The translations under genes and the position numbers were made by a program. A stretch of 64,000 bases of DNA. Origin: Escherichia coli (lineage in GTDB: Bacteria; Pseudomonadota; Gammaproteobacteria; Enterobacterales; Enterobacteriaceae). Below the pieces are notes generated by a model. It saw nothing but the letters and a program-made list of their open reading frames with translations, was not told the DNA's origin and made no database searches. Below, in pieces: positions 171 through 11,450 of the stretch (the stretch's first letter is position 1; each line of letters opens with the position of its first letter). The stretch lies in NCBI RefSeq assembly GCF_041248615.1, contig NZ_CP158425.1. One strand, 5' to 3'.

Positions 171-1034
171 TTATACTCCATATCTCTCCGGTGCAGGAAT
201 AGCCTTTTCTGATGCACGGCTAACAGCTTCCCATTCTTCCCAGGTAGCCATCCGTGCTTTTAAGGTATCCATCGCCAAATCGTATACCATGCTGCCAAGG
301 ATAAGCCTCAAAGGCGGATTATTGCTGGCTACTAATTTCATAAGGGCTTCCGCTGCCAAGGAAGGATCACTATCGACCGAATCTTCGGAATACTGTTTCG
401 CCAGCTCATCGCGCAGTGTACCGTATGAATCTAATGGATTGCTGTAACTCATCGAAGTGTATAAATCTGTCCAATATCCTCCTGGTTCCACCATAGTGAG
501 TTTCACTCCGAAATGTTCCGCTTCTTTTGCTAAGGCTTCACTCATTCCTTCCAGCGCAAATTTACTTGCACTGTAAATACCAGACATCGGACCCGAGATA
601 ATAGCGCCAATGCTTGTAATCTGTATGATATGTCCAGAACGCTGCGACCTCAAATAGGGCATCACTGCCTGACAAACCCAAAGAGCTCCAAAAAAGTTTG
701 TGTCCATTAGTTTCCGAGCATCGGATTCGTTTAGTTCTTCAATCATACCCATAGTCATGATACCCGCATTATTAACAACAATATCAAGCCTACCGAAATG
801 TTTAACTGCTGTTTCAACCGTAGAAAAAACAGCCTCCCTATCTGTAACATCGAGGTTTAATGGCAGTAAGCTCTCTTGATATGTTTCTTCTAGCTTCGCC
901 AAATTATCGATAGTCCTTGCAACTGCAACAACTTTATCCCCGGCTTTCAAGGCGGCGCATGTAAAAGCATAGCCAAGCCCCTTGCTTGCTCCGGTAATAA
1001 ACCATACTCTTTTATTTTCGCTATTAGGTATCAT
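171..1034 (-). CDS. short-chain dehydrogenase/reductase (SDR) family oxidoreductase
   Basis: 287 aa ORF with N-terminal TGASKGLG Rossmann motif and YSASK (YxxxK) catalytic motif. Confidence 0.85.
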   Translation of the reverse strand: MIPNSENKRVWFITGASKGLGYAFTCAALKAGDKVVAVARTIDNLAKLEETYQESLLPLNLDVTDREAVFSTVETAVKHFGRLDIVVNNAGIMTMGMIEELNESDARKLMDTNFFGALWVCQAVMPYLRSQRSGHIIQITSIGAIISGPMSGIYSASKFALEGMSEALAKEAEHFGVKLTMVEPGGYWTDLYTSMSYSNPLDSYGTLRDELAKQYSEDSVDSDPSLAAEALMKLVASNNPPLRLILGSMVYDLAMDTLKARMATWEEWEAVSRASEKAIPAPERYGV

Positions 1035-1179
1035 AGATATTCTCCTTTAGGCTATTATAGAAAGATTATTATAAGCGAAATTAATACCGTTAAACGCCAT
1101 GAGCCCGACAATTTTGAGCACTTTGTTTTGTACTCCCAGAAGCTCACCACTACAAATTATCATCAACCCGGTCCTTTTT

Positions 1180-1439
1180 TCAGTCCACTTGCGGTTTCAT
1201 TGTTACTTTGTCATAGCGTCGTGTCAGAATGCGGCAGAGAACAGCGTTTACTATCAACGCAACACCAGACCAGAAAAACCATGTATTAACACCTATAACC
1301 TCAACAACCGGACCTGCAACAAGTAAGCCTATCGGCATAGAAAGAGTCATGGCGGTCATCAAAAGGGAAAACACCTTGCCCATCATTTCAGGGGCAATGC
1401 TTTCTTGAACATAAGCCATAACAGGAACATTCATAAATG
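1180..1439 (-). pseudogene. MFS-type transporter, C-terminal fragment truncated by IS26
   Basis: Hydrophobic C-terminal segment of a transporter-like ORF; reading frame runs into the IS26 terminal repeat at 1440. Confidence 0.5.
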
Positions 1440-2259
1440 GGCACTGTTGCAAAGTTAGCGATGAGGCAGCCTTTTGTCTTATTCAAAGGCCTTACATTTC
1501 AAAAACTCTGCTTACCAGGCGCATTTCGCCCAGGGGATCACCATAATAAAATGCTGAGGCCTGGCCTTTGCGTAGTGCACGCATCACCTCAATACCTTTG
1601 ATGGTGGCGTAAGCCGTCTTCATGGATTTAAATCCCAGCGTGGCGCCGATTATCCGTTTCAGTTTGCCATGATCGCATTCAATCACGTTGTTCCGGTACT
1701 TAATCTGTCGGTGTTCAACGTCAGACGGGCACCGGCCTTCGCGTTTGAGCAGAGCAAGCGCGCGACCATAGGCGGGCGCTTTATCCGTGTTGATGAATCG
1801 CGGGATCTGCCACTTCTTCACGTTGTTGAGGATTTTACCCAGAAACCGGTATGCAGCTTTGCTGTTACGACGGGAGGAGAGATAAAAATCGACAGTGCGG
1901 CCCCGGCTGTCGACGGCCCGGTACAGATACGCCCAGCGGCCATTGACCTTCACGTAGGTTTCATCCATGTGCCACGGGCAAAGATCGGAAGGGTTACGCC
2001 AGTACCAGCGCAGCCGTTTTTCCATTTCAGGCGCATAACGCTGAACCCAGCGGTAAATCGTGGAGTGATCGACATTCACTCCGCGTTCAGCCAGCATCTC
2101 CTGCAGCTCACGGTAACTGATGCCGTATTTGCAGTACCAGCGTACGGCCCACAGAATGATGTCACGCTGAAAATGCCGGCCTTTGAATGGGTTCATGTGC
2201 AGCTCCATCAGCAAAAGGGGATGATAAGTTTATCACCACCGACTATTTGCAACAGTGCC
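1440..2259 (-). mobile_element. IS26 (IS6 family), 820 bp
   Basis: Terminal inverted repeats GGCACTGTTGCAAA at 1440 and complement ending 2259; encloses Tnp26; flanking 8 bp differ (no target-site duplication). Confidence 0.95.
1492..2196 (-). CDS. tnp26: IS26 transposase Tnp26
   Basis: Protein MNPFKGRHFQRDIILWAVRWYCKYGISYRELQEM... matches remembered Tnp26; ORF-track N-terminal extension ignored. Confidence 0.95.
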   Translation of the reverse strand: MNPFKGRHFQRDIILWAVRWYCKYGISYRELQEMLAERGVNVDHSTIYRWVQRYAPEMEKRLRWYWRNPSDLCPWHMDETYVKVNGRWAYLYRAVDSRGRTVDFYLSSRRNSKAAYRFLGKILNNVKKWQIPRFINTDKAPAYGRALALLKREGRCPSDVEHRQIKYRNNVIECDHGKLKRIIGATLGFKSMKTAYATIKGIEVMRALRKGQASAFYYGDPLGEMRLVSRVFEM

Positions 2260-2605
2260 CCTGCGGGTTCTGACTGGAAAGGGCGCTCAGATCGACACCA
2301 CGACTGCGTCCGGTCGCATGGTGTTCGGAATCTTCGCCACCTTGGCCGAGTTCGAGCGGGATCTGATCCGAGAGCGCACCATGGCGGGTCTCGCCTCCGC
2401 GAGAGCGCGCGGTCGCAAGGGCGGACGAAAATTCGCGCTCACCAAAGCTCAGGTGCGTCTCGCGCAAGCCGCCATGGCCCAGCGCGATACTTCAGTTTCC
2501 GATCTCTGCAAGGAACTCGGCATCGAGCGCGTCACTCTCTACCGATATGTCGGTCCCAAAGGCGAGCTCAGAGACCATGGAAAGCATGTTCTCGGACTTA
2601 CGTAG
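2260..2605 (+). pseudogene. tnpR: Tn5393 resolvase tnpR, 3' fragment (5' end removed by IS26)
   Basis: 346 bp identical in translation to the 3' part of the intact tnpR at 11075-11420; begins directly at the IS26 boundary. Confidence 0.9.
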
Positions 2606-2669
2606 TGGACTTGCCTCGGTTTCGTTCCGGTCTTTTTGAGAGCATTATTTGTTATCAAGGAGACCATAT

Positions 2670-2945
2670 ATGTCATTAAAGCATAGTGATGAATTTAAGC
2701 GTGATGCAGTTCGCATAGCACTCACTAGTGGCTTAACACGCCGTCAAGTTGCGTCAGATTTAAGTATTGGGCTTTCCACGCTTGGGAAATGGATCGCATC
2801 AATTTCCGATGAAACTAAAATTCCTACCCAAGACACTGATCTTCTGCGTGAGAATGAACGTTTACGCAAAGAGAACCGTATCCTTCGGGAGGAGAGGGAG
2901 ATATTAAAAAAGGCAGCAATATTTTTCGCAGTACAAAAGCTGTGA
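2670..2945 (+). CDS. IS1133 transposase OrfA (helix-turn-helix)
   Basis: IS3-family OrfA-like protein with leucine-zipper C-terminus; ATG at 2670 preceded by AAGGAG. Confidence 0.8.
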   Translation: MSLKHSDEFKRDAVRIALTSGLTRRQVASDLSIGLSTLGKWIASISDETKIPTQDTDLLRENERLRKENRILREEREILKKAAIFFAVQKL

Positions 2946-3799
2946 GATTTCAGTTTATTACGGATTACCGTGGCTCTCTCTCACGTTCACGCATATGTCG
3001 TTTGATGGGCGTAACAGATCGTGGTTTACGTGCATGGAAACGCCGTCCTCCATCACTGCGCCAGCGTCGTGATCTTATACTTCTAGCGCATATACGTGAG
3101 CAGCATCGGTTGTGTTTGGGGAGCTATGGTAGGCCGCGTATGACAGAAGAGTTGAAAGCGCTGGGCCTGCAGGTTGGGCAGCGTCGGGTTGGACGTTTGA
3201 TGCGCCAGAATAACATTACAGTTGTTCGAACGCGTAAATTCAAACGGACAACGGATAGTCATCATACCTTCAACATTGCACCGAACCTATTAAAACAAGA
3301 CTTTAGCGCAAGCGCACCCAACCAGAAATGGGCAGGCGATATCACTTATGTTTGGACCAGAGAAGGATGGGTCTATCTTGCTGTTATCCTTGACCTGTAT
3401 TCCCGTCGCGTGATTGGCTGGGCAACAGGTGATCGATTAAAGCAGGATCTTGCATTAAGGGCACTGAATATGGCGTTGGCTTTACGCAAACCACCACCGG
3501 GTTGTATTCAACACACAGACCGTGGGAGCCAATATTGCGCTCATGAATATCAAAAGCTACTGCTCAAACATCAATTGCTGCCGTCCATGAGCGGGAAAGG
3601 CAATTGTTTTGATAACTCCGCAGTAGAAAGCTTCTTTAAATCATTAAAGGCTGAGTTGATTTGGCGCAGACACTGGCAAACAAGGCGAGATATTGAGATT
3701 GCAATCTTCGAATATATAAATGGCTTTTATAATCCACGCCGAAGACATTCAACACTCGGCTGGAAATCGCCGGTGGCATTTGAGAAAAAAGCCGCTTAA
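2942..3799 (+). CDS. IS1133 transposase OrfB (integrase core, DDE)
   Basis: 285 aa ORF overlapping OrfA in typical IS3 frameshift arrangement; DITYV...integrase core. Confidence 0.85.
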   Translation: MRFQFITDYRGSLSRSRICRLMGVTDRGLRAWKRRPPSLRQRRDLILLAHIREQHRLCLGSYGRPRMTEELKALGLQVGQRRVGRLMRQNNITVVRTRKFKRTTDSHHTFNIAPNLLKQDFSASAPNQKWAGDITYVWTREGWVYLAVILDLYSRRVIGWATGDRLKQDLALRALNMALALRKPPPGCIQHTDRGSQYCAHEYQKLLLKHQLLPSMSGKGNCFDNSAVESFFKSLKAELIWRRHWQTRRDIEIAIFEYINGFYNPRRRHSTLGWKSPVAFEKKAA

Positions 3800-3905
3800 A
3801 ATGAGAGATAGACCGGAACACAACCGGTGCAAGTCCATAGCAACTCGTTTCTTTTCGCAGGTTGAGCCACCTCCGCGCTTCATCAGAAAACTGAAGGAAC
3901 CTCCA

Positions 3906-4709
3906 TTGAATCGAACTAATATTTTTTTTGGTGAATCGCATTCTGACTGGTTGCCTGTCAGAGGCGGAGAATCTGGTGATTTTGTTTTTCGACGTGGTGA
4001 CGGGCATGCCTTCGCGAAAATCGCACCTGCTTCCCGCCGCGGTGAGCTCGCTGGAGAGCGTGACCGCCTCATTTGGCTCAAAGGTCGAGGTGTGGCTTGC
4101 CCCGAGGTCATCAACTGGCAGGAGGAACAGGAGGGTGCATGCTTGGTGATAACGGCAATTCCGGGAGTACCGGCGGCTGATCTGTCTGGAGCGGATTTGC
4201 TCAAAGCGTGGCCGTCAATGGGGCAGCAACTTGGCGCTGTTCACAGCCTATCGGTTGATCAATGTCCGTTTGAGCGCAGGCTGTCGCGAATGTTCGGACG
4301 CGCCGTTGATGTGGTGTCCCGCAATGCCGTCAATCCCGACTTCTTACCGGACGAGGACAAGAGTACGCCGCAGCTCGATCTTTTGGCTCGTGTCGAACGA
4401 GAGCTACCGGTGCGGCTCGACCAAGAGCGCACCGATATGGTTGTTTGCCATGGTGATCCCTGCATGCCGAACTTCATGGTGGACCCTAAAACTCTTCAAT
4501 GCACGGGTCTGATCGACCTTGGGCGGCTCGGAACAGCAGATCGCTATGCCGATTTGGCACTCATGATTGCTAACGCCGAAGAGAACTGGGCAGCGCCAGA
4601 TGAAGCAGAGCGCGCCTTCGCTGTCCTATTCAATGTATTGGGGATCGAAGCCCCCGACCGCGAACGCCTTGCCTTCTATCTGCGATTGGACCCTCTGACT
4701 TGGGGTTGA
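3906..4709 (+). CDS. strA: aminoglycoside 3''-phosphotransferase APH(3'')-Ib (streptomycin resistance)
   Basis: Protein from NRTNIFFGESHSDWLPVRGG... to ...LRLDPLTWG matches StrA; TTG start at 3906; ORF-track upstream extension not coding. Confidence 0.95.
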   Translation: MNRTNIFFGESHSDWLPVRGGESGDFVFRRGDGHAFAKIAPASRRGELAGERDRLIWLKGRGVACPEVINWQEEQEGACLVITAIPGVPAADLSGADLLKAWPSMGQQLGAVHSLSVDQCPFERRLSRMFGRAVDVVSRNAVNPDFLPDEDKSTPQLDLLARVERELPVRLDQERTDMVVCHGDPCMPNFMVDPKTLQCTGLIDLGRLGTADRYADLALMIANAEENWAAPDEAERAFAVLFNVLGIEAPDRERLAFYLRLDPLTWG

Positions 4710-5545
4710 TGTTCATGCCGCCTGTTTTTCCTGCTCATTGGCACGTTTCGCAACCTGTTCTCATTGCGGACACCTTTTCCAGCCTCGTTTGGAAAGTTTC
4801 ATTGCCAGACGGGACTCCTGCAATCGTCAAGGGATTGAAACCTATAGAAGACATTGCTGATGAACTGCGCGGGGCCGACTATCTGGTATGGCGCAATGGG
4901 AGGGGAGCAGTCCGGTTGCTCGGTCGTGAGAACAATCTGATGTTGCTCGAATATGCCGGGGAGCGAATGCTCTCTCACATCGTTGCCGAGCACGGCGACT
5001 ACCAGGCGACCGAAATTGCAGCGGAACTAATGGCGAAGCTGTATGCCGCATCTGAGGAACCCCTGCCTTCTGCCCTTCTCCCGATCCGGGATCGCTTTGC
5101 AGCTTTGTTTCAGCGGGCGCGCGATGATCAAAACGCAGGTTGTCAAACTGACTACGTCCACGCGGCGATTATAGCCGATCAAATGATGAGCAATGCCTCG
5201 GAACTGCGTGGGCTACATGGCGATCTGCATCATGAAAACATCATGTTCTCCAGTCGCGGCTGGCTGGTGATAGATCCCGTCGGTCTGGTCGGTGAAGTGG
5301 GCTTTGGCGCCGCCAATATGTTCTACGATCCGGCTGACAGAGACGACCTTTGTCTCGATCCTAGACGCATTGCACAGATGGCGGACGCATTCTCTCGTGC
5401 GCTGGACGTCGATCCGCGTCGCCTGCTCGACCAGGCGTACGCTTATGGGTGCCTTTCCGCAGCTTGGAACGCGGATGGAGAAGAGGAGCAACGCGATCTA
5501 GCTATCGCGGCCGCGATCAAGCAGGTGCGACAGACGTCATACTAG
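4709..5545 (+). CDS. strB: aminoglycoside 6-phosphotransferase APH(6)-Id (streptomycin resistance)
   Basis: Protein MFMPPVFPAHWHVSQPVLIADTFSS... matches StrB; start overlaps strA stop (TGATG). Confidence 0.95.
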   Translation: MFMPPVFPAHWHVSQPVLIADTFSSLVWKVSLPDGTPAIVKGLKPIEDIADELRGADYLVWRNGRGAVRLLGRENNLMLLEYAGERMLSHIVAEHGDYQATEIAAELMAKLYAASEEPLPSALLPIRDRFAALFQRARDDQNAGCQTDYVHAAIIADQMMSNASELRGLHGDLHHENIMFSSRGWLVIDPVGLVGEVGFGAANMFYDPADRDDLCLDPRRIAQMADAFSRALDVDPRRLLDQAYAYGCLSAAWNADGEEEQRDLAIAAAIKQVRQTSY

Positions 5546-5570
5546 ATATCAAGCGACTTCTCCTATCCCC

Positions 5571-5651
5571 TGGGAACACATCAATCTTACCGGAGAATAT
5601 CGTTGGCCAAAGCCTTAGCGTAGGATTTCGCCCTCTCCCGCAAACGACCCC
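5571..5651. repeat. Tn5393 81-bp terminal inverted repeat (IRR)
   Basis: Reverse complement aligns with the IRL at 7762-7842 with a few mismatches. Confidence 0.85.
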
Positions 5652-5880
5652 TTTATTGTAGGTGGGCCAGTTGGTGATTTTGAACTTTTGCTTTGCCACG
5701 GAACGGTCTGCGTTGTCGGGAAGATGCGTGATCTGATCCTTCAACTCAGCAAAAGTTCGATTTATTCAACAAATCCACGTTGTGTCTCAAAATCTCTGAT
5801 GTTACATTGCACAAGATAAAAATATATCATCATGAACAATAAAACTGTCTGCTTACATAAACAGTAATACAAGGGGTGTT

Positions 5881-6696
5881 ATGAGCCATATTCAACGGGA
5901 AACGTCTTGCTCGAGGCCGCGATTAAATTCCAACCTGGATGCTGATTTATATGGGTATAAATGGGCTCGCGATAATGTCGGGCAATCAGGTGCGACAATC
6001 TATCGATTGTATGGGAAGCCCGATGCGCCAGAGTTGTTTCTGAAACATGGCAAAGGTAGCGTTGCCAATGATGTTACAGATGAGATGGTCAGACTAAACT
6101 GGCTGACGGCATTTATGCCTCTTCCGACCATCAAGCATTTTATCCGTACTCCTGATGATGCATGGTTACTCACCACTGCGCTCCCCGGGAAAACAGCATT
6201 CCAGGTATTAGAAGAATATCCTGATTCAGGTGAAAATATTGTTGATGCGCTGGCAGCGTTCCTGCGCCGGTTGCATTCGATTCCTGTTAGTAATTGTCCT
6301 TTTAACAGCGATCGCGTATTTCGTCTCGCTCAGGCGCAATCACGAATGAATAACGGTTTGGTTGATGCGAGTGATTTTGATGACGAGCGTAATGGCTGGC
6401 CTGTTGAACAAGTCTGGAAAGAAATGCATAAGCTTTTGCCATTCTCACCGGATTCAGTCGTCACTCATGGTGATTTCTCACTTGATAACCTTATTTTTGA
6501 CGAGGGGAAATTAATAGGTTGTATTGATGTTGGACGAGTCGGAATCGCAGACCGATACCAGGATCTTGCCATCCTATGGAACTGCCTCGGTGAATTTTCT
6601 CCTTCATTACAGAAACGGCTTTTTCAAAAATATGGTATTGATAATCCTGATATGAATAAATTGCAGTTTCATTTGATGCTCGATGAGTTTTTCTGA
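5881..6696 (+). CDS. aph(3')-Ia: aminoglycoside 3'-phosphotransferase APH(3')-Ia (kanamycin/neomycin resistance)
   Basis: Protein MSHIQRETSCSRPRLNSNLDADLYGYKWARDNVGQSGATIYRLYGK...; upstream leader matches Tn903-type aphA1 context. Confidence 0.95.
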   Translation: MSHIQRETSCSRPRLNSNLDADLYGYKWARDNVGQSGATIYRLYGKPDAPELFLKHGKGSVANDVTDEMVRLNWLTAFMPLPTIKHFIRTPDDAWLLTTALPGKTAFQVLEEYPDSGENIVDALAAFLRRLHSIPVSNCPFNSDRVFRLAQAQSRMNNGLVDASDFDDERNGWPVEQVWKEMHKLLPFSPDSVVTHGDFSLDNLIFDEGKLIGCIDVGRVGIADRYQDLAILWNCLGEFSPSLQKRLFQKYGIDNPDMNKLQFHLMLDEFF

Positions 6697-6849
6697 TAGT
6701 TAGTCTTTGTAGAGACACAAACCTGAAATTCCGGACACCGCGCTTCAGGACATCTCCCTGGACGCCGATATCTGGCAGTATCCGGACGGTACTATCGAAC
6801 GCCGGGCCAACGGTACTCCCCTGCCCTTTATGACTGACGACCGGCTATT

Positions 6850-7758
6850 TCACCCACGCACTTCTCCATGAAATTTAGCATCGTCGCGGTTAATGTCGAA
6901 AATTTGCCACCTGACGTGGTTGGCATCGAGGGTGAAAACTGCCGTGGCGAGGGTGTTCTCCTCATCCGGATCGTCGGCAGCCAGCCGGTAAATTGGCAGT
7001 TCTGCGTCATGGGTATCTGAGAGAATGGTTTTTGCCGCCGCGGCGTCAAACGGAGGTTGCGTTTCCCGCCACTGCACGAGGCGTAACTGCCGCGACGCTG
7101 AACTGTCGGTAACGATCTGCTCAACGCCAGCCAGTGCCGCATGCACCAGATGGTTGGCATGCCCGGTTACCGTCGTCAGGGGTAGAACGGAACAGCCTTG
7201 ACCGGTGGCCTCAACGCTGAACAGCCGCGCATCGCCCAGCTGCCCGAGCGTATGGTGAAACGCCCCGGATCGCGGCTGGCCGGTAAGTATAGTGATGGCC
7301 TCGTCGAGGGTGTTCGCATTCAGCGAGGCGCGAGCCAGGATCTGACGCGGTAATCCCTGCGGACGATACACTGCACGGATGTTATTCACCGTGTTAACGA
7401 TACCTTTTTCATTTACCGCAAAGGTGTGGCCGCAAATCGACCCCGGATAGGCAAAACTCGTAAAGCTCAGACCGCGACTCGGAGTAATGGTAGCCAGCAA
7501 GCATTCATCCCGTAACTGAGGAAAACCGTCTTCATTATGCGCGATAATCCGCTCGCCTGCGGCGTTTACCCCGGCCACCGTCGTACAGCCATCCGACGTT
7601 GAGCGCACCAGATCGCCACGGCAGTTCCAGGCAAAGACCTGATCAACAGTGGCCTCCAGTCCCTGCGCCAGCCCCTCCAGCTCCTGCCAGATGTGCGGAT
7701 AATGCCGCTGCACCTCGGCGCGCATTAACCGGGTCTCAGGGGATGCCTGCAGGGTCAT
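6850..7758 (-). CDS. C45-family autoproteolytic acyltransferase/hydrolase-like protein (tentative)
   Basis: About 302 aa; DGCTTV motif resembles the Gly-Cys self-cleavage site of acyl-CoA:6-APA acyltransferase-like enzymes; ends 3 bp before Tn5393 IRL. Confidence 0.5.
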   Translation of the reverse strand: MTLQASPETRLMRAEVQRHYPHIWQELEGLAQGLEATVDQVFAWNCRGDLVRSTSDGCTTVAGVNAAGERIIAHNEDGFPQLRDECLLATITPSRGLSFTSFAYPGSICGHTFAVNEKGIVNTVNNIRAVYRPQGLPRQILARASLNANTLDEAITILTGQPRSGAFHHTLGQLGDARLFSVEATGQGCSVLPLTTVTGHANHLVHAALAGVEQIVTDSSASRQLRLVQWRETQPPFDAAAAKTILSDTHDAELPIYRLAADDPDEENTLATAVFTLDANHVRWQIFDINRDDAKFHGEVRG

Positions 7759-7761
7759 CAC

Positions 7762-7842
7762 GGGGTCGTTTGCGGGAGGGGGCGGAATCCTACGCTAAGG
7801 CTTTGGCCAGCGATATTCTCCGGTGAGATTGATGTGTTCCCA
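7762..7842. repeat. Tn5393 81-bp terminal inverted repeat (IRL)
   Basis: GGGGTCGTTTGCGGGAGGGGGCGGAATCCTACGCTAAGG...; tnpA reading frame terminates inside it. Confidence 0.85.
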
Positions 7843-10680
7843 TCCGAGCGGCGAAACATGGGCCAAGAGATCGGGCGATAGCAGCTTTCCATCGCGTTTC
7901 TGGTTTGCAACGACCTCGCCGAGCTTCATGGTGTTCCAGAAGATGATGATGGCGGCGAGCAGATTCATGCCGGCGATGCGGTAATGCTGGCCTTCGGCGG
8001 AACGGTCGCGGATTTCACCGCGGCGGTGGAAGCTGATTGCCCGCTTCAGCGCATGATGAGCTTCGCCTTTGTTGAGCCCGATCTGGGCACGCCGTTGGAG
8101 TTCGGCATCCAGAATCCAGTCGATCATGAACAGGGTGCGCTCGACGCGACCGACTTCCCGCAGGGCTGTCGCGAGCTCGTTCTGCCGCGGATAGGAGGCG
8201 AGTTTCCGCAGAATCTGGCTTGGCGCGACGGTCCCGGCAGCAATGGTGGCGGCGATGCGCAGGATGTCGGGCCAATTGCGCTCGATCATGGCTTGGTTGA
8301 CCTTTCCGCCGATCAACGCTCGCAGGTGCGCCGGGGCGGCCGACGGATTGAACGCGTAGAGCCGTTTGGATGGCAGGTCGCGGATGCGCGGAGCGAACCG
8401 GTAGCCGAGAATGGCACATGCGGCAAAGACGTGATCGGTGAAGCCGCCCGTGTCGGTGAACTGCTCGCGGATATGGCGTCCAGCATCGTTCATCAGCAGG
8501 CCATCGAGGATGTAAGGCGCTTCGCTTGCCGTTGCAGGAATCACCTGGGTTGCGAACGGCGCATATTGGTCGGAGACGTGGCTATAGGCTTTCAGGCCCG
8601 GGGTATTGCCATATTTCGCGTTGACCAGGTTCATGGCCTCACCTTGCTCTGTAGCGACGAAGAACTGTCCGTCGCTCGAAGCCGACGTGCCCATGCCCCA
8701 GAACCGGGCCATGGGTAACGCTGCCTGTGCCTCGACCACCATGGCCAGCGCCCGGTCATAGGCTTCGCCCTCGACATGCCACCGTCCAATGCGGATCAAT
8801 TCCCAGAAGGTGTGGGTGTTTGTCGCATCCGCCATTTTGCGCAAGCCGAGGTTGATCCCTTCCGCCAAGATAACGTTCATTAGCCCGATCCGGTCAGCGC
8901 AGGGTGCTCCTGTGCGCAGATGGGTGAACGCTTCGGTGAAGCCGGTCGCCGCATCCACCTCCAGCAGGAGATCGGTGATGCGCGTGGGCGGGATCTGCTT
9001 GTAGAGATCGAGCACCAGATCTTCGGCGCCTGTCGGCGCGGCGGCTTCGAGTTTCTCGATATGCAGAACGCCGTTTTCAATCGACCCGCCCGGGATCGTG
9101 CCTGCGCGAGCGGCACGGCCAAGCTCGCGCAACCGCATGTCGAGGCGAGCTTGCCGGTCTGCCAGCCATTCCTCCGGCCGCAATGGCACAGCGAGACGAC
9201 CGCCTTCCGCGATGGATTGTGCCGGAACGAGTGCGTGTTTCAGATCGCCATAGCGCCGGGACCTAGTAAGCCAGACATCTCCGGAGCGGAACGCATCGCG
9301 CAGATGGAACAGCACCGCGATCTCCCATAGGCGAGCGTCGCCAGCCCTCTGGGCCCGAAGGTGGCGATGCCATTTCGAGCTGGGCCGCAAGAAGCTGGTC
9401 ATCGCGGCATCGTTCAAACCGGTACGAAGGGCCGTCACCGCTTCCAGAAGCGGCAGTGCAACGGGCGCAGCTCGCAGATCGAGCAGGCGCAACATGCGTG
9501 GAGCGTATCGGCGGAAGCGGTGATAACCGTCGAGCACATGATTGAGCGGATCGTCGGCCATGGTGGCGGTCAGCCTGGTTGCCATTGCAACAAGGGTTTT
9601 TAAGCCGTCCCACCCTGACCCACTCGCGATGACATCGCCCAGCGGCTGGCCATCATCCTGTGCATCGACCAGGGCGCCCCCGATCTCGGCGAAGGATTTC
9701 AGGGTGTCACGCACCACCCCCGCTTCGTCTGCGACCTTTGCATGGCAAATACGCTCCGAAGCACGGTAGAGACGGCCGACGATCCGGTCGTGGGTTTCGA
9801 CCACTGCGTCGGCCAACATCGCCTGCCATTCCGAGACGCAAACAGCCAAGATCGCAAGCCGCCTGTCCTCCGGGAGATCGCGCATGCCGTCGGCATAATA
9901 CCGTTCACCCTGCCTGCGCAGACGAGTCACCCGATGGGCAGGAACGCCGGCAAGCAGATCCTCGGGGAGATCGATGCGTTGCAGATATTCGAGCCGGTCG
10001 AGCAGCCGGTTGGCCGACGAAGAGTTCGAGCCAGGCTCGAACTGGCGCAGCCACACAAAACGGGTCACCCGATCATCAGCCGTCTCCTCGAGCAATGCCA
10101 GCAACTGTTCTCGGATCGACATAGGCAGCCGACTGGCGATCCTCGTCTCGATGCGTCGCTCGGCATCGACGAGAGCCGCGGCACAAAGCCGCTCGATCGT
10201 GGATGTCGCGGGAAGGACAGTGCGGGTGCGTCGGCACTCGGCTACGAAGCGACGGGCGATATCCTCGTTCGACACCGCCATCTCGGCTTCTCGGAACAAC
10301 CATTCCTTCAGCTCGCTCGCACCACGTCCGGAGAAGGTGCGGAAGCCGTAGAGCCCCCGTAACTCGGCAAGATGCTCGTGCCGTGTTTCCTCGCGGGCAG
10401 CATAGTCTACGAGATCGTCGGCACCCAGGCCAAGCTGCGCTCCGATAAATTCGATGACCTCTGCAGGGATCAGTTCGCCTGGAGCCAGCACCCGGCCGGG
10501 ATAGCGCAGGACACACAATTGCAGGGCGAAGCCGAACCTGTTGTGAGCGCGCCGACGCAGCCTGATATGCCCAAGGTCTTCATCACTCAGCGTATAGTGC
10601 TTGAGCAAATCCGTCTGTGAAGTCGGCAAGCGCAACAGCGCGTCTTTCTGCCGATCGGTTAGAGTGACGCGACGCGGCAT
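7795..10680 (-). CDS. tnpA: Tn3-family transposase TnpA of Tn5393
   Basis: 961 aa ORF typical of Tn3-family transposases; divergent from tnpR. Confidence 0.95.
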   Translation of the reverse strand: MPRRVTLTDRQKDALLRLPTSQTDLLKHYTLSDEDLGHIRLRRRAHNRFGFALQLCVLRYPGRVLAPGELIPAEVIEFIGAQLGLGADDLVDYAAREETRHEHLAELRGLYGFRTFSGRGASELKEWLFREAEMAVSNEDIARRFVAECRRTRTVLPATSTIERLCAAALVDAERRIETRIASRLPMSIREQLLALLEETADDRVTRFVWLRQFEPGSNSSSANRLLDRLEYLQRIDLPEDLLAGVPAHRVTRLRRQGERYYADGMRDLPEDRRLAILAVCVSEWQAMLADAVVETHDRIVGRLYRASERICHAKVADEAGVVRDTLKSFAEIGGALVDAQDDGQPLGDVIASGSGWDGLKTLVAMATRLTATMADDPLNHVLDGYHRFRRYAPRMLRLLDLRAAPVALPLLEAVTALRTGLNDAAMTSFLRPSSKWHRHLRAQRAGDARLWEIAVLFHLRDAFRSGDVWLTRSRRYGDLKHALVPAQSIAEGGRLAVPLRPEEWLADRQARLDMRLRELGRAARAGTIPGGSIENGVLHIEKLEAAAPTGAEDLVLDLYKQIPPTRITDLLLEVDAATGFTEAFTHLRTGAPCADRIGLMNVILAEGINLGLRKMADATNTHTFWELIRIGRWHVEGEAYDRALAMVVEAQAALPMARFWGMGTSASSDGQFFVATEQGEAMNLVNAKYGNTPGLKAYSHVSDQYAPFATQVIPATASEAPYILDGLLMNDAGRHIREQFTDTGGFTDHVFAACAILGYRFAPRIRDLPSKRLYAFNPSAAPAHLRALIGGKVNQAMIERNWPDILRIAATIAAGTVAPSQILRKLASYPRQNELATALREVGRVERTLFMIDWILDAELQRRAQIGLNKGEAHHALKRAISFHRRGEIRDRSAEGQHYRIAGMNLLAAIIIFWNTMKLGEVVANQKRDGKLLSPDLLAHVSPLGWEHINLTGEYRWPKP

Positions 10681-10805
10681 ACATGTTCCTTTTTCAAAAT
10701 CTGATAGCGTTCAAGACGCTTTGTTTATGAAGCTGGTTGAGATACATTTCCAGAGGTCAATGCAATCGTGGCCGAAGCGCCGCCTCAAACCAACGTTTGT
10801 GATAC
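10681..10805. promoter_or_regulatory. res site / divergent tnpA-tnpR promoter region of Tn5393
   Basis: 125-bp intergenic region between divergently transcribed tnpA and tnpR, the usual position of res in Tn3-family elements. Confidence 0.6.
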
Positions 10806-11420
10806 ATGCTGATCGGATATGCCCGCGTCTCCAAAGCCGATGGCTCGCAGTCTCTCGACCTGCAGCACGACGCCTTGCGCGCCGCAGGTGTCGAACGGGA
10901 CAATATCTATGATGATCTTGCTTCCGGCGGTCGTGATGATCGCCCTGGCTTGACTGCCTGCCTCAAGTCATTGCGTGACGGCGATGTGCTGGTGGTCTGG
11001 AAGCTCGATCGCCTCGGACGATCGCTTGCCCATCTGGTCAACACGGTGAAGGAGCTGTCAGACCGCAAGATCGGCCTGCGGGTTCTGACTGGAAAGGGCG
11101 CTCAGATCGACACCACGACTGCGTCCGGTCGCATGGTGTTCGGAATCTTCGCCACCTTGGCCGAGTTCGAGCGGGATCTGATCCGAGAGCGCACCATGGC
11201 GGGTCTCGCCTCCGCGAGAGCGCGCGGTCGCAAGGGCGGACGAAAATTCGCGCTCACCAAAGCTCAGGTGCGTCTCGCGCAAGCCGCCATGGCCCAGCGC
11301 GATACTTCAGTTTCCGATCTCTGCAAGGAACTCGGCATCGAGCGCGTCACTCTCTACCGATATGTCGGTCCCAAAGGCGAGCTCAGAGACCATGGAAAGC
11401 ATGTTCTCGGACTTACGTAG
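10806..11420 (+). CDS. tnpR: Tn5393 resolvase TnpR (serine recombinase)
   Basis: 204 aa; N-terminal MLIGYARVSKADGSQSLDLQ serine-recombinase motif; C-terminal helix-turn-helix. Confidence 0.95.
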   Translation: MLIGYARVSKADGSQSLDLQHDALRAAGVERDNIYDDLASGGRDDRPGLTACLKSLRDGDVLVVWKLDRLGRSLAHLVNTVKELSDRKIGLRVLTGKGAQIDTTTASGRMVFGIFATLAEFERDLIRERTMAGLASARARGRKGGRKFALTKAQVRLAQAAMAQRDTSVSDLCKELGIERVTLYRYVGPKGELRDHGKHVLGLT

Positions 11421-11450
11421 CAACTCGTTTCTTTTCGCAGGTTGAGCCAC

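Follow-up and report, generated by a model that had tools for sequence, protein, structure and literature searches.

A 2.1-kb aph(3')-Ia segment between two partial Tn5393 copies is very probably a relic of aphA1 capture from a K. michiganensis chromosome

The window analyzed here is a 64,000-nucleotide stretch of the Escherichia coli contig NZ_CP158425.1, in which two partial copies of Tn5393 flank a 2.1-kb segment. The left partial copy (2260-5651, plus strand) consists of a tnpR fragment cut by IS26 (2260-2605), which is 100% identical to the 3' part of the other tnpR of the window (11075-11420), IS1133 (about 2606-3837), strA or aph(3'')-Ib (3906-4709), strB or aph(6)-Id (4709-5545) and, downstream of strA-strB, the 81-bp Tn5393 IRR (5571-5651). 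Its genes were delineated by ORF calls and named via the colinear plasmid pSE08-00436-1; the names IS1133 and Tn5393 are those that we take to apply from established knowledge of Tn5393. The right partial copy (7762-11450, minus strand), delineated by ORF calls and plasmid annotations, comprises the 81-bp IRL (7762-7842), a Tn3-family tnpA encoding 961 amino acids (7795-10680, minus strand) and tnpR (10806-11420, plus strand), which is followed by 30 bp more and then a truncation. The first-pass annotation had placed aph(3')-Ia and a minus-strand acyltransferase-like gene between the two terminal repeats, and this arrangement was found at exactly the coordinates that it gave. Within the segment, 125 bp left over from the left end of an IS903-group IS (5652-5776, minus strand) are followed by a 104-bp aph leader native to K. 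michiganensis (5777-5880, plus strand), an intact aph(3')-Ia, or aphA1, gene (5881-6696, plus strand), K. michiganensis intergenic DNA between two convergent genes (6697-6849, no strand assigned) and a 5'-truncated fragment of a C45-family, acyltransferase (AAT)-like gene with codons 38-340 and the native stop (6850-7761, minus strand).

The 271-amino acid product of the aph ORF is WP_000018321.1, which is annotated as APH(3')-Ia, and it scored 643.6 bits with NCBIfam NF051474 (cutoff, 625 bits), with residues 1-271 of 271 covered. Judging from its family membership and from the literature (PMC12670165), this enzyme would inactivate kanamycin and neomycin by 3'-O-phosphorylation. The leader upstream is identical at all 104 bp to the chromosomal contigs L005, L006, L012 and L014. 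A promoter proposed for aphA1 is located in this leader (Moran and Hall, 2025; PMC12670165), and in the window it reads TTGTGT (5780-5785), a 17-nt spacer and TACATT (5803-5808). The aph(3')-Ia gene is predicted to be the only working part of the segment and to be expressed from this native promoter.

The TGA stop of aph(3')-Ia (6694-6696) is followed by TAGTTAGTC, whereas Tn903 has a TAA stop followed by TCAGAATTGG; the first-pass annotation was accurate in describing a Tn903-type leader joined to a different 3' flank. The ORF differs at four nucleotides from the allele of the K. michiganensis contig L005 and at seven from the Tn903 cassette allele, and its product differs from the Tn903 reference by M19L, E77A, I101L, V126A and C137S. 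Of these changes, I101L and C137S are absent from every chromosomal or other mobile allele compared, and they might have arisen after mobilization. When SNP patterns were compared for ancestry shared by the window and Tn903, the chromosomal aph alleles were found to be mosaics.

The IS remnant is identical at 124 of 125 positions to the matching end of IS903B in PTn2680 of Rts1 (record NC_003905 was used in place of AP004237), and the sole difference lies in the terminal IR (AAATCC versus AAAGCC). This terminal IR adjoins the aph leader, with the IS end at 5776 and the aph ATG at 5881, and thus lies 104 bp upstream of the gene, while at its far side the remnant is truncated by the Tn5393 IRR tip.

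The minus-strand ORF encodes 303 amino acids from GTG 7761 or 302 from ATG 7758, the latter being the start of the PGAP call WP_000174819.1. Its DGCTTV motif (residues 57-62 of the 303-amino acid ORF; 7576-7593, minus strand) had been likened in the first-pass annotation to the self-cleavage site of acyl-CoA:6-aminopenicillanic acid (6-APA) acyltransferases, for which a profile search of the 302-amino acid protein was suggested. The search confirmed the C45/AAT family, with 124.4 bits for Pfam PF03417 (AAT; cutoff, 23.2) and 236.6 bits for NCBIfam NF040521 (C45_proenzyme; cutoff, 85). The likeness of the motif was likewise borne out by alignment: DGCTT of a full-length 340-amino acid homologue, P0001, whose residues 38-340 are 98% identical to the ORF, aligns with Gly102-Cys103, at which Penicillium chrysogenum AAT (PDB 2x1d) cleaves itself. 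The ORF therefore belongs to the C45, or acyl-CoA:6-APA acyltransferase, family. The P. chrysogenum acyl-CoA:isopenicillin N/6-APA acyltransferase (MEROPS C45; PDB 2x1c, 2x1d, and 2x1e) has PF03417 in common with this family member, but it is only distantly related to the full-length K. michiganensis homologue (E = 3.5e-8, with only the first 200 residues aligned). Unlike it, the bacterial C45 gene is part of a glutamine-type ABC-transporter operon with no link to penicillin biosynthesis, and the copy in the window is truncated.

Residue 1 of the ORF corresponds to residue 38 of P0001, the first 37 codons being gone, and the match to NF040521 starts at profile position 42 of 313. The missing part includes GSPFEIG (residues 8-14), which represents a conserved N-terminal GxPFEIG element. 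The truncation point lies exactly at the outer tip of the Tn5393 IRL: homology to the chromosome ends at 7761/7762, where the window switches to IRL and the chromosome runs on. The fragment lacks its native start codon and the upstream glnHPQ operon. No Shine-Dalgarno element was found in the sequence upstream of the ORF, CCCTCCCGCAAACGACCCC, nor was a promoter-like site found in the IRL directly upstream of the fragment, and a promoter and terminator scan around the fragment yielded no excess over the expectation from shuffled sequences. The truncation is the only damage to the ORF. The first-pass annotation had allowed that the protein might be a frameshifted remnant or a member of an unrelated family; a remnant it is, by virtue of the 37-codon truncation at the IRL tip, but it has no frameshifts and belongs to the family proposed. 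PGAP calls it a C45 peptidase, with a pseudogene flag ("incomplete; missing N-terminus") in some records.

It is very unlikely that the C45 gene is functional, co-selected cargo, such as an acyltransferase or amidase with beta-lactams, acyl-homoserine lactones or bile salts as its substrates. The ORF does stay open for 303 codons to the native stop, retains the catalytic Gly-Cys site, scores far over the family cutoffs and is kept at 100% identity in many plasmids. It also shares the strand of tnpA and follows that gene by 33 nt, and read-through from tnpA may transcribe the fragment and permit some translation from GTG 7761 or ATG 7758. Such a function is, however, hard to reconcile with the loss of 37 N-terminal residues that include a motif conserved with AAT, with the want of a ribosome-binding or promoter-like site noted above, with a truncation at a transposon tip, which points to an insertion accident, and with the many derivative plasmids that keep aph and have lost most or all of the fragment; the 100% identity would be due to one joint having spread recently, not to purifying selection. 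Given that the fragment is without 37 codons including the conserved motif, without a start signal and without the operon promoter, it is most likely inert passenger DNA. The first-pass view of the acyltransferase as unusual cargo was not upheld, and the fragment is better described as a truncated by-product of aphA1 capture. A false lead is thereby removed, in that an acyltransferase-like gene beside resistance genes does not here represent a new resistance or virulence function.

The IRR and IRL match at 77 of 81 positions, and their outer tips (…GACCCC | and | GGGGTC…, in which the vertical bar marks the segment border) both point toward the 2.1-kb segment. Because the outer tips face it, the segment lies outside both Tn5393 copies, which are partial and differ from each other in that IS1133 is present in the left copy and absent from the right one: positions 11418-11450 continue from tnpR and match 3838-3870, which means that the IS1133 site is uninterrupted in the right copy. 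The copies overlap by 346 + 33 bp, and this overlap, together with the presence or absence of IS1133, ruled out a single, circularly permuted Tn5393 copy. The 5 bp beside the IR tips are also unlike each other, TTTAT on the IRR side versus ATCAC on the IRL side, and thus do not form the target-site duplication that a single insertion into a circle would leave; on this ground, insertion of one Tn5393 into a 2.1-kb circle was rejected.

The same observations bear on the proposal that a new Tn5393 variant carries the segment as internal cargo, or that the segment arose as a cointegrate-type product when one Tn5393 transposed into a small circular aphA1 molecule. The Tn5393 terminal repeats bracket the segment precisely, and aphA1-carrying variants of Tn5393 have been described, for example Tn5393e with Tn6023 (reported by Cain and Hall, 2011). 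The inward-facing outer tips, the unlike 5-bp flanks and the derivation of the flanking copies from different variants, with and without IS1133, nevertheless make this proposal extremely unlikely.

The origin of the DNA between the IS remnant and IRL can be traced to K. michiganensis. Positions 5775-7761 of the window are colinear with the chromosomal contig L005 over 1,987 bp, of which 5777-7761 (1,985 bp) form the K. michiganensis-derived passenger. The C45 part shows 99.34% nucleotide identity to L005 and L006, and the region between aph and C45, which contains an 11-bp indel at about 6795-6805, just 86-95%; the exact donor strain is not among the contigs examined. In contigs of the L005 type, aph and an intact 340-amino acid C45 gene converge as they do in the window, whereas in sister contigs the aph and C45 parts, each about 98.8% identical, are about 6.3 kb apart. 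The native C45 gene is the last gene of an SBP-permease-ATPase-C45 (glnHPQ-C45) operon, with a 19-bp gap in L005. No transposase-type Pfam match was found among the called genes of the 20-kb L005 locus. Of 100,044 species-representative genomes, only that of K. michiganensis DSM 25444 was hit by a 32-nt probe over the native upstream junction.

Transfer in the reverse direction, by which K. michiganensis chromosomes would have gained aph and neighboring DNA from plasmids, might be suggested by the variability of aph in this species (intact in 5 of the 10 contigs listed, with partial deletions in the remaining 5 and the type strain, and found in three different 3' contexts), but it is exceedingly improbable in view of chromosomal copies that lack IS903 and Tn5393 ends and run on both sides into intact flanking genes (SnoaL-like upstream; C45 with glnHPQ downstream), of partial copies that are deletions with a common upstream junction, and of several independent mobile forms, each of which matches its own chromosomal configuration (see also PMC12670165).

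The junction of TGA and TAGTTAGTC is present in the chromosomal contig L005, with related forms in R478 and Rts1, and chromosomes of the L006 type have the Tn903-type flank after the aph stop. The two flanks are thus two natural chromosomal haplotypes. Moran and Hall (JAC 2025, PMC12670165) showed earlier that K. michiganensis is the source of aphA1 and described a transposon passenger in which this C45 gene is included. The K. michiganensis origin of aphA1 is therefore already published, and the window alone reproduces that conclusion.

Among the known aphA1 elements, TnaphA1-pIE545, an IS102-bounded compound transposon (Moran and Hall, 2025; PMC12670165), resembles the window in having a K. 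michiganensis passenger with aphA1 and a convergent C45 gene in the YZUMF202001/L005-type configuration, and in being flanked by an IS of the IS903 group. The 3,312-bp passenger of pIE545, however, contains a complete C45 gene with glnQ and part of glnP after it, and the IS lies 116 bp upstream of aphA1 rather than 104 bp; the window retains 125 bp of the IS, and its 1,985-bp passenger ends within C45 at IRL. This comparison with pIE545 (PV671756) was made at the level of the published description. Unlike the passengers described by Moran and Hall, that of the window does not have the capturing IS on both sides, being bordered by the 125-bp remnant on the left and by the IRL in C45 on the right.

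PTnaphA1-R478 and PTn2680 of Rts1 share with the window a TGA-type stop and a related 3' flank, and both are K. michiganensis-derived (PMC12670165). R478 is 99.2% identical to the window over 5799-6750 and 98.4% over 6740-6990. Both elements differ from the window in being IS26-bounded pseudo-compound transposons. In addition, R478 is missing most of C45 via a 1,540-bp chromosomal deletion, while Rts1 has 53 additional bp after the stop and its IS903B insertion is displaced by 1 bp, to 103 bp before the start codon.

Tn903 (IS903-aphA1-IS903) also has a 104-bp leader, and presumably the same IS end faces aph there as in the window. The length of its leader was derived by subtracting the 816-bp gene and the 60-bp 3' flank from the 980-bp passenger (PMC12670165), given that the sequence of the Tn903-type record examined (L020), a cloning cassette, reaches only 99 bp upstream of the start codon. 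Downstream of the gene, Tn903 departs from the window: its stop is followed by a 60-bp flank, TCAGAATTGG…GACGGC, and then by a second, inverted IS903. This flank is the L006-type chromosomal haplotype, whereas the window has TGA TAGTTAGTC and 1 kb of C45 DNA.

Taken with these comparisons, the 2.1-kb segment is very probably a relic of the capture of aphA1 from a K. michiganensis chromosome, with the C45 piece as an inert by-product. The captured DNA (5777-7761) would have come from a type of strain whose aph gene converges on C45, the last gene of the glnHPQ-C45 operon. Its left edge is marked by an IS903-group element, the insertion of which, 104 bp before the aph start codon, is directly evident. 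A Tn5393 copy would then have inserted into, or recombined beside, that element, sparing 125 bp of it, and a second Tn5393 copy would have cut the C45 gene at codon 37/38; we infer the order and the mechanism of both Tn5393 events. The reciprocal junction of the second event (IRR, ATCAC, then CGTTTGCCACAATGACG…, the 5' part of C45) was not found in PLSDB. The query combined the 5' part of C45 with glnQ and glnP, and it matched nothing above 92% identity except glnP segments of the R478 type; the 5' part of this C45 gene was in no PLSDB plasmid. Since no reciprocal junction was found, insertion of Tn5393 into C45 is a model that we infer.

The truncated neighbor genes can be read as molecular fossils that trace the site and the route of resistance-gene capture. 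The widespread IncHI2/IncX1 form would stem from the "aph-C45 adjacent" chromosome type and Tn903 from another chromosomal haplotype. This reading is an incremental addition to existing knowledge, and its sole new detail is the present passenger form, which is unlisted in Moran and Hall (PMC12670165). We tentatively suggest that the 1,985-bp passenger could represent an aphA1 capture independent of the three events that they listed, on the basis of an IS903-group insertion at a possible hotspot 104 bp upstream of the start codon combined with the "aph-C45 adjacent" configuration.

Whether the IRR-to-IRL segment recurs had been raised in the first-pass annotation. The exact joint, which is far from a chance pattern, was found in at least 139 PLSDB plasmids and at least 112 complete E. 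coli genomes, and many plasmids carry the entire 2.4-kb stretch at 100% identity. The same junction between C45 and IRL occurs in IncHI2 (L001), IncX1-like (L002 and L004) and pAH25-2 (L003) contexts. The block would now be spreading within larger resistance regions rich in IS26 and Tn elements on IncHI2, IncX1 and other plasmids. There is no sign of selection on the C45 fragment, as one junction is shared, shortened derivatives occur and the 5' part is absent from PLSDB. In the shorter derivatives from E. coli records, aph is kept and the queried 3' stretch is reduced to 334, 248, 189, 116 or 56 bp. In IncX1-like plasmids, nt 1-23 of IRL are joined to window position 5711, a joint that would be producible by deletion within a once-complete left-hand Tn5393 copy.

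In the window, strA and strB extend to 5545, and the 81-bp right terminal repeat of Tn5393 (IRR, 5571-5651) comes next. The 81-bp left repeat (IRL, 7762-7842), which agrees with IRR at 77 of 81 positions, precedes the minus-strand gene of a 961-aa Tn3-family transposase (7795-10680) and tnpR (10806-11420). Between IRR and IRL are an intact aph(3')-Ia (i.e., aphA1; 5881-6696, 271 aa; NCBIfam NF051474, 643.6 bits against a cutoff of 625), whose TGA stop codon is followed by TAGTTAGTC, and a minus-strand open reading frame (ORF) from 7761 to 6850, which encodes 303 aa from a GTG or 302 aa from the ATG at 7758 (PGAP call WP_000174819.1). All these features, together with a DGCTTV motif, were found where the first-pass annotation had placed them, and its assignment of the ORF to the C45/AAT acyltransferase family was right, as the ORF matched PF03417 (124.4 bits) and NF040521 (236.6 bits) in profile searches. 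Its reading of the acyltransferase-like gene as unusual cargo did not hold: aph and C45 form a known native neighbourhood of Klebsiella michiganensis (PMC12670165), and the ORF is truncated. The observation stands, but it is an ordinary one that has already been explained.

The DGCTTV motif occupies residues 57-62 of the C45 ORF (window 7576-7593), and the NF040521 alignment begins only at profile position 42 of 313. C45 homologues in the protein database have 337-344 aa. The closest of them (P0001, 340 aa, labeled K. michiganensis by NCBI) is 98% identical, and its residue 38 aligns with residue 1 of the ORF. Beyond the equivalent of 7761 the chromosome runs on from GGGTCATCAC into CGTTTGCCACAATG, while at the same point the window changes from GGGTCATCAC to the IRL tip, GGGGTCGTTTGCGGG. 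The full-length protein P0001 aligns with the Penicillium chrysogenum acyltransferase (PDB 2x1d, E = 3.5e-8); its DGCTT aligns to the Gly102-Cys103 self-cleavage site, and its conserved GSPFEIG (residues 8-14), which falls within the 37 residues absent from the window copy, aligns to the AAT motif GTPFEIG. No Shine-Dalgarno element was found in the IRL sequence upstream of the GTG/ATG (ending in CCCTCCCGCAAACGACCCC), and a consensus scan found no promoter-like site in IRL. In two of the fetched records, this ORF carries the PGAP tag "incomplete; missing N-terminus". Judged from its sequence, the C45 fragment is most likely inert. Transcription could conceivably read through from tnpA, located 33 nt upstream on the same strand; any resulting product would be without the conserved N-terminal element and without a recognisable translation start signal.

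It was previously reported that aphA1 has its origin in K. michiganensis, from which it was captured on at least three occasions, that one passenger with the C45 gene corresponds to strain YZUMF202001, and that R478 goes back to a type of chromosome that had lost the peptidase gene through a 1,540-bp deletion (Moran and Hall, J Antimicrob Chemother 2025, PMC12670165). The K. michiganensis origin of aphA1 is thus already published, and because the arrangement in the window matches the published native neighbourhood, the acyltransferase-like gene is a hitchhiker. We looked up the contigs encoding P0001 (69-430 kb each). In those shown, an intact C45 gene closes a block that encodes a substrate-binding protein, a permease, an ABC ATPase and C45, with a gap of 19 bp before C45 in L005. 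In this contig a 271-aa APH gene and C45 converge just as they do in the window; the same gene is about 6.3 kb farther from C45 in L006, L007 and L012, is separated from it by two genes in L014 and is partly deleted in L008-L011 and L013. BLAST aligned 1,987 bp of L005 colinearly with window 5775-7761; the other contigs match 5775-6697 and 6710-7761 at about 98.8% identity each. The 104-bp leader is identical to all chromosomal alleles compared, the aph ORF differs from that of L005 by 4 nt, and the C45 part is 99.34% identical to L005 and L006. The intergenic spacer is 86-95% identical to these two contigs, with an 11-bp indel relative to L005. A 32-nt probe over the native upstream junction (GGCGGGAACC joined to ACGTTGTGTC) hit just one of 100,044 species-representative genomes, that of K. 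michiganensis DSM 25444, a strain that has lost most of aph.

The window aph differs from the closest chromosomal allele, that of L005, at four nucleotides, and each of these changes is nonsynonymous (E77A, I101L, V126A and C137S). I101L and C137S (window 6181 and 6289; codons 101 and 137) are absent from every other chromosomal or mobile allele compared; selection after mobilisation may account for them, or they may simply have been inherited from a donor that was not sampled.

The aph 3' junction is polymorphic within K. michiganensis. In L006-type chromosomes a TAA stop codon is followed by TCAGAATTGGTTGTAACACTGGCAG through GACGGGACGGC, which is the 60-bp 3' flank of Tn903, as it adjoins the IS903 end in a Tn903 cloning-cassette record. 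L005 has TGA followed by TAGTTAGTCTTTG and TAGAGACAC, the same as the window; R478 and Rts1 have related TGA-type flanks, and L014 has a third kind of junction. The description of a Tn903-type leader with a different 3' flank was accurate, and is therefore accounted for by two natural chromosomal haplotypes. It should be noted that the chromosomal aph locus is highly variable across L005-L015: three different sequences start no more than 3 bp from the stop codon of aph, where the rearrangement end points cluster, and aph is partly deleted in five of ten contigs and in the type strain DSM 25444, with the upstream junction always retained.

On the left side, window 5652-5776 is identical at 124 of 125 positions to the left end of IS903B in Rts1, and the terminal repeat of this IS903 remnant adjoins the leader 104 bp ahead of the aph ATG. 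The Tn903 leader has the same length, given its 980-bp passenger (PMC12670165), 816-bp gene and 60-bp 3' flank. IS102 in pIE545 is at 116 bp. The IS903-group insertion in Rts1 (2700-3790) is 1 bp off, 103 bp upstream, with the duplication CGTTGTGTC, and that in pKM58_1 (3990-4002) is also 104 bp upstream, in the orientation opposite to the window's. IS903-group insertions within 1 bp of one another in three contexts (window 5776/5777, Rts1 and pKM58_1) indicate an insertion hotspot upstream of aph; a shared junction is therefore weak evidence for shared ancestry. In the IncP plasmid pEG1-1 (MG879028.1, 3484-5091), the leader likewise begins 104 bp before the aph start codon, with no IS there, and is joined to a 520-bp stretch of K. 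michiganensis DNA whose counterpart in L006 (99.8% identical) is about 16 kb distant, which suggests a rearrangement within the donor chromosome.

Because the outer tips of both repeats face the segment, it lies outside Tn5393. A single Tn5393 insertion into a small circle is excluded by the unlike pentanucleotides beside the tips (TTTAT and ATCAC). The left copy consists of an IS26-truncated tnpR (2260-2605), IS1133 (about 2606-3837), strA, strB and IRR. In the right copy, which ends 30 bp past tnpR, nothing interrupts the IS1133 site (11418-11450 matches 3838-3870). The flanking copies thus represent two different variants, one with and one without IS1133, and would have been joined around the aphA1 segment by insertion or recombination. 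In pSE08-00436-1 the left arm is, unlike that of the window, RSF1010-type repC-sul2-strAB, which shows exchange within strAB. In IncX1-like plasmids of 46-105 kb, the left side is IRL nt 1-23 joined to window 5711 over a GCG microhomology, as would be expected if a left-hand Tn5393 that was once complete had undergone an internal deletion. A search of PLSDB did not turn up the reciprocal C45 junction. The compact IncX1-like derivative (plasmid positions 5000-5025 and 7073-7223) comprises IRL nt 1-23, the IS903 remnant, aph and the truncated C45 gene, plus 151 bp from the left end of Tn5393; it interrupts a thermonuclease gene in the backbone of the plasmid. In addition, the two Tn5393 copies (window 2260-3870 and 11075-11450) have 346 bp of the 3' end of tnpR in common as a direct repeat, a potential substrate for deletion of the entire strAB-aphA1-tnpA block.

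The IRR-to-IRL joint recurs in other plasmids, a check that the first-pass annotation had proposed: the 2.4-kb stretch 5500-7900 was found in 139 PLSDB plasmids at a coverage of at least 80%, including IncHI2 plasmids of Salmonella, E. coli and E. fergusonii, with 100% identity in all of the 30 matches listed. The aph-distal part (6690-7770) was found in 112 of 5,426 complete E. coli genomes at a coverage of at least 80%, and the C45-IRL junction is identical in all four fetched plasmid contexts. Derivatives keep aph with just 334, 248, 189, 116 or 56 bp of the queried 3' stretch, and in pAH25-2 the other side is cut by IS26. Such erosion fits DNA without selection. The working element is predicted to be aph(3')-Ia, driven by its native promoter TTGTGT-17-TACATT at 5780-5808 (PMC12670165).

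The window is an IncHI2 resistance region, colinear with pSE08-00436-1 across 3874-42675 except for one missing block. Its 1,985-bp passenger is absent from the published table (PMC12670165) and may be new in a minor way. Also absent from Table 1 of Moran and Hall (2025; PMC12670165), and perhaps new in the same minor way, is a 3.96-kb passenger of the Enterobacter hormaechei IncHI2 plasmid pKM58_1 (NZ_CP126812.1, 2937-9010), in which two directly oriented IS903B bound a 3,957-bp segment with aph, a LysR gene, an Fe-alcohol dehydrogenase gene and a partial MFS gene. This segment is colinear with L006 (99.3% identical), has the Tn903-type 3' haplotype and could be a precursor form of Tn903 or Tn602. 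Upstream of IS26 (1440-2260), window 171-1452 contains an ORF for a 287-aa short-chain dehydrogenase-like protein and a 90-aa C-terminal fragment resembling a truncated MFS transporter cut by IS26.
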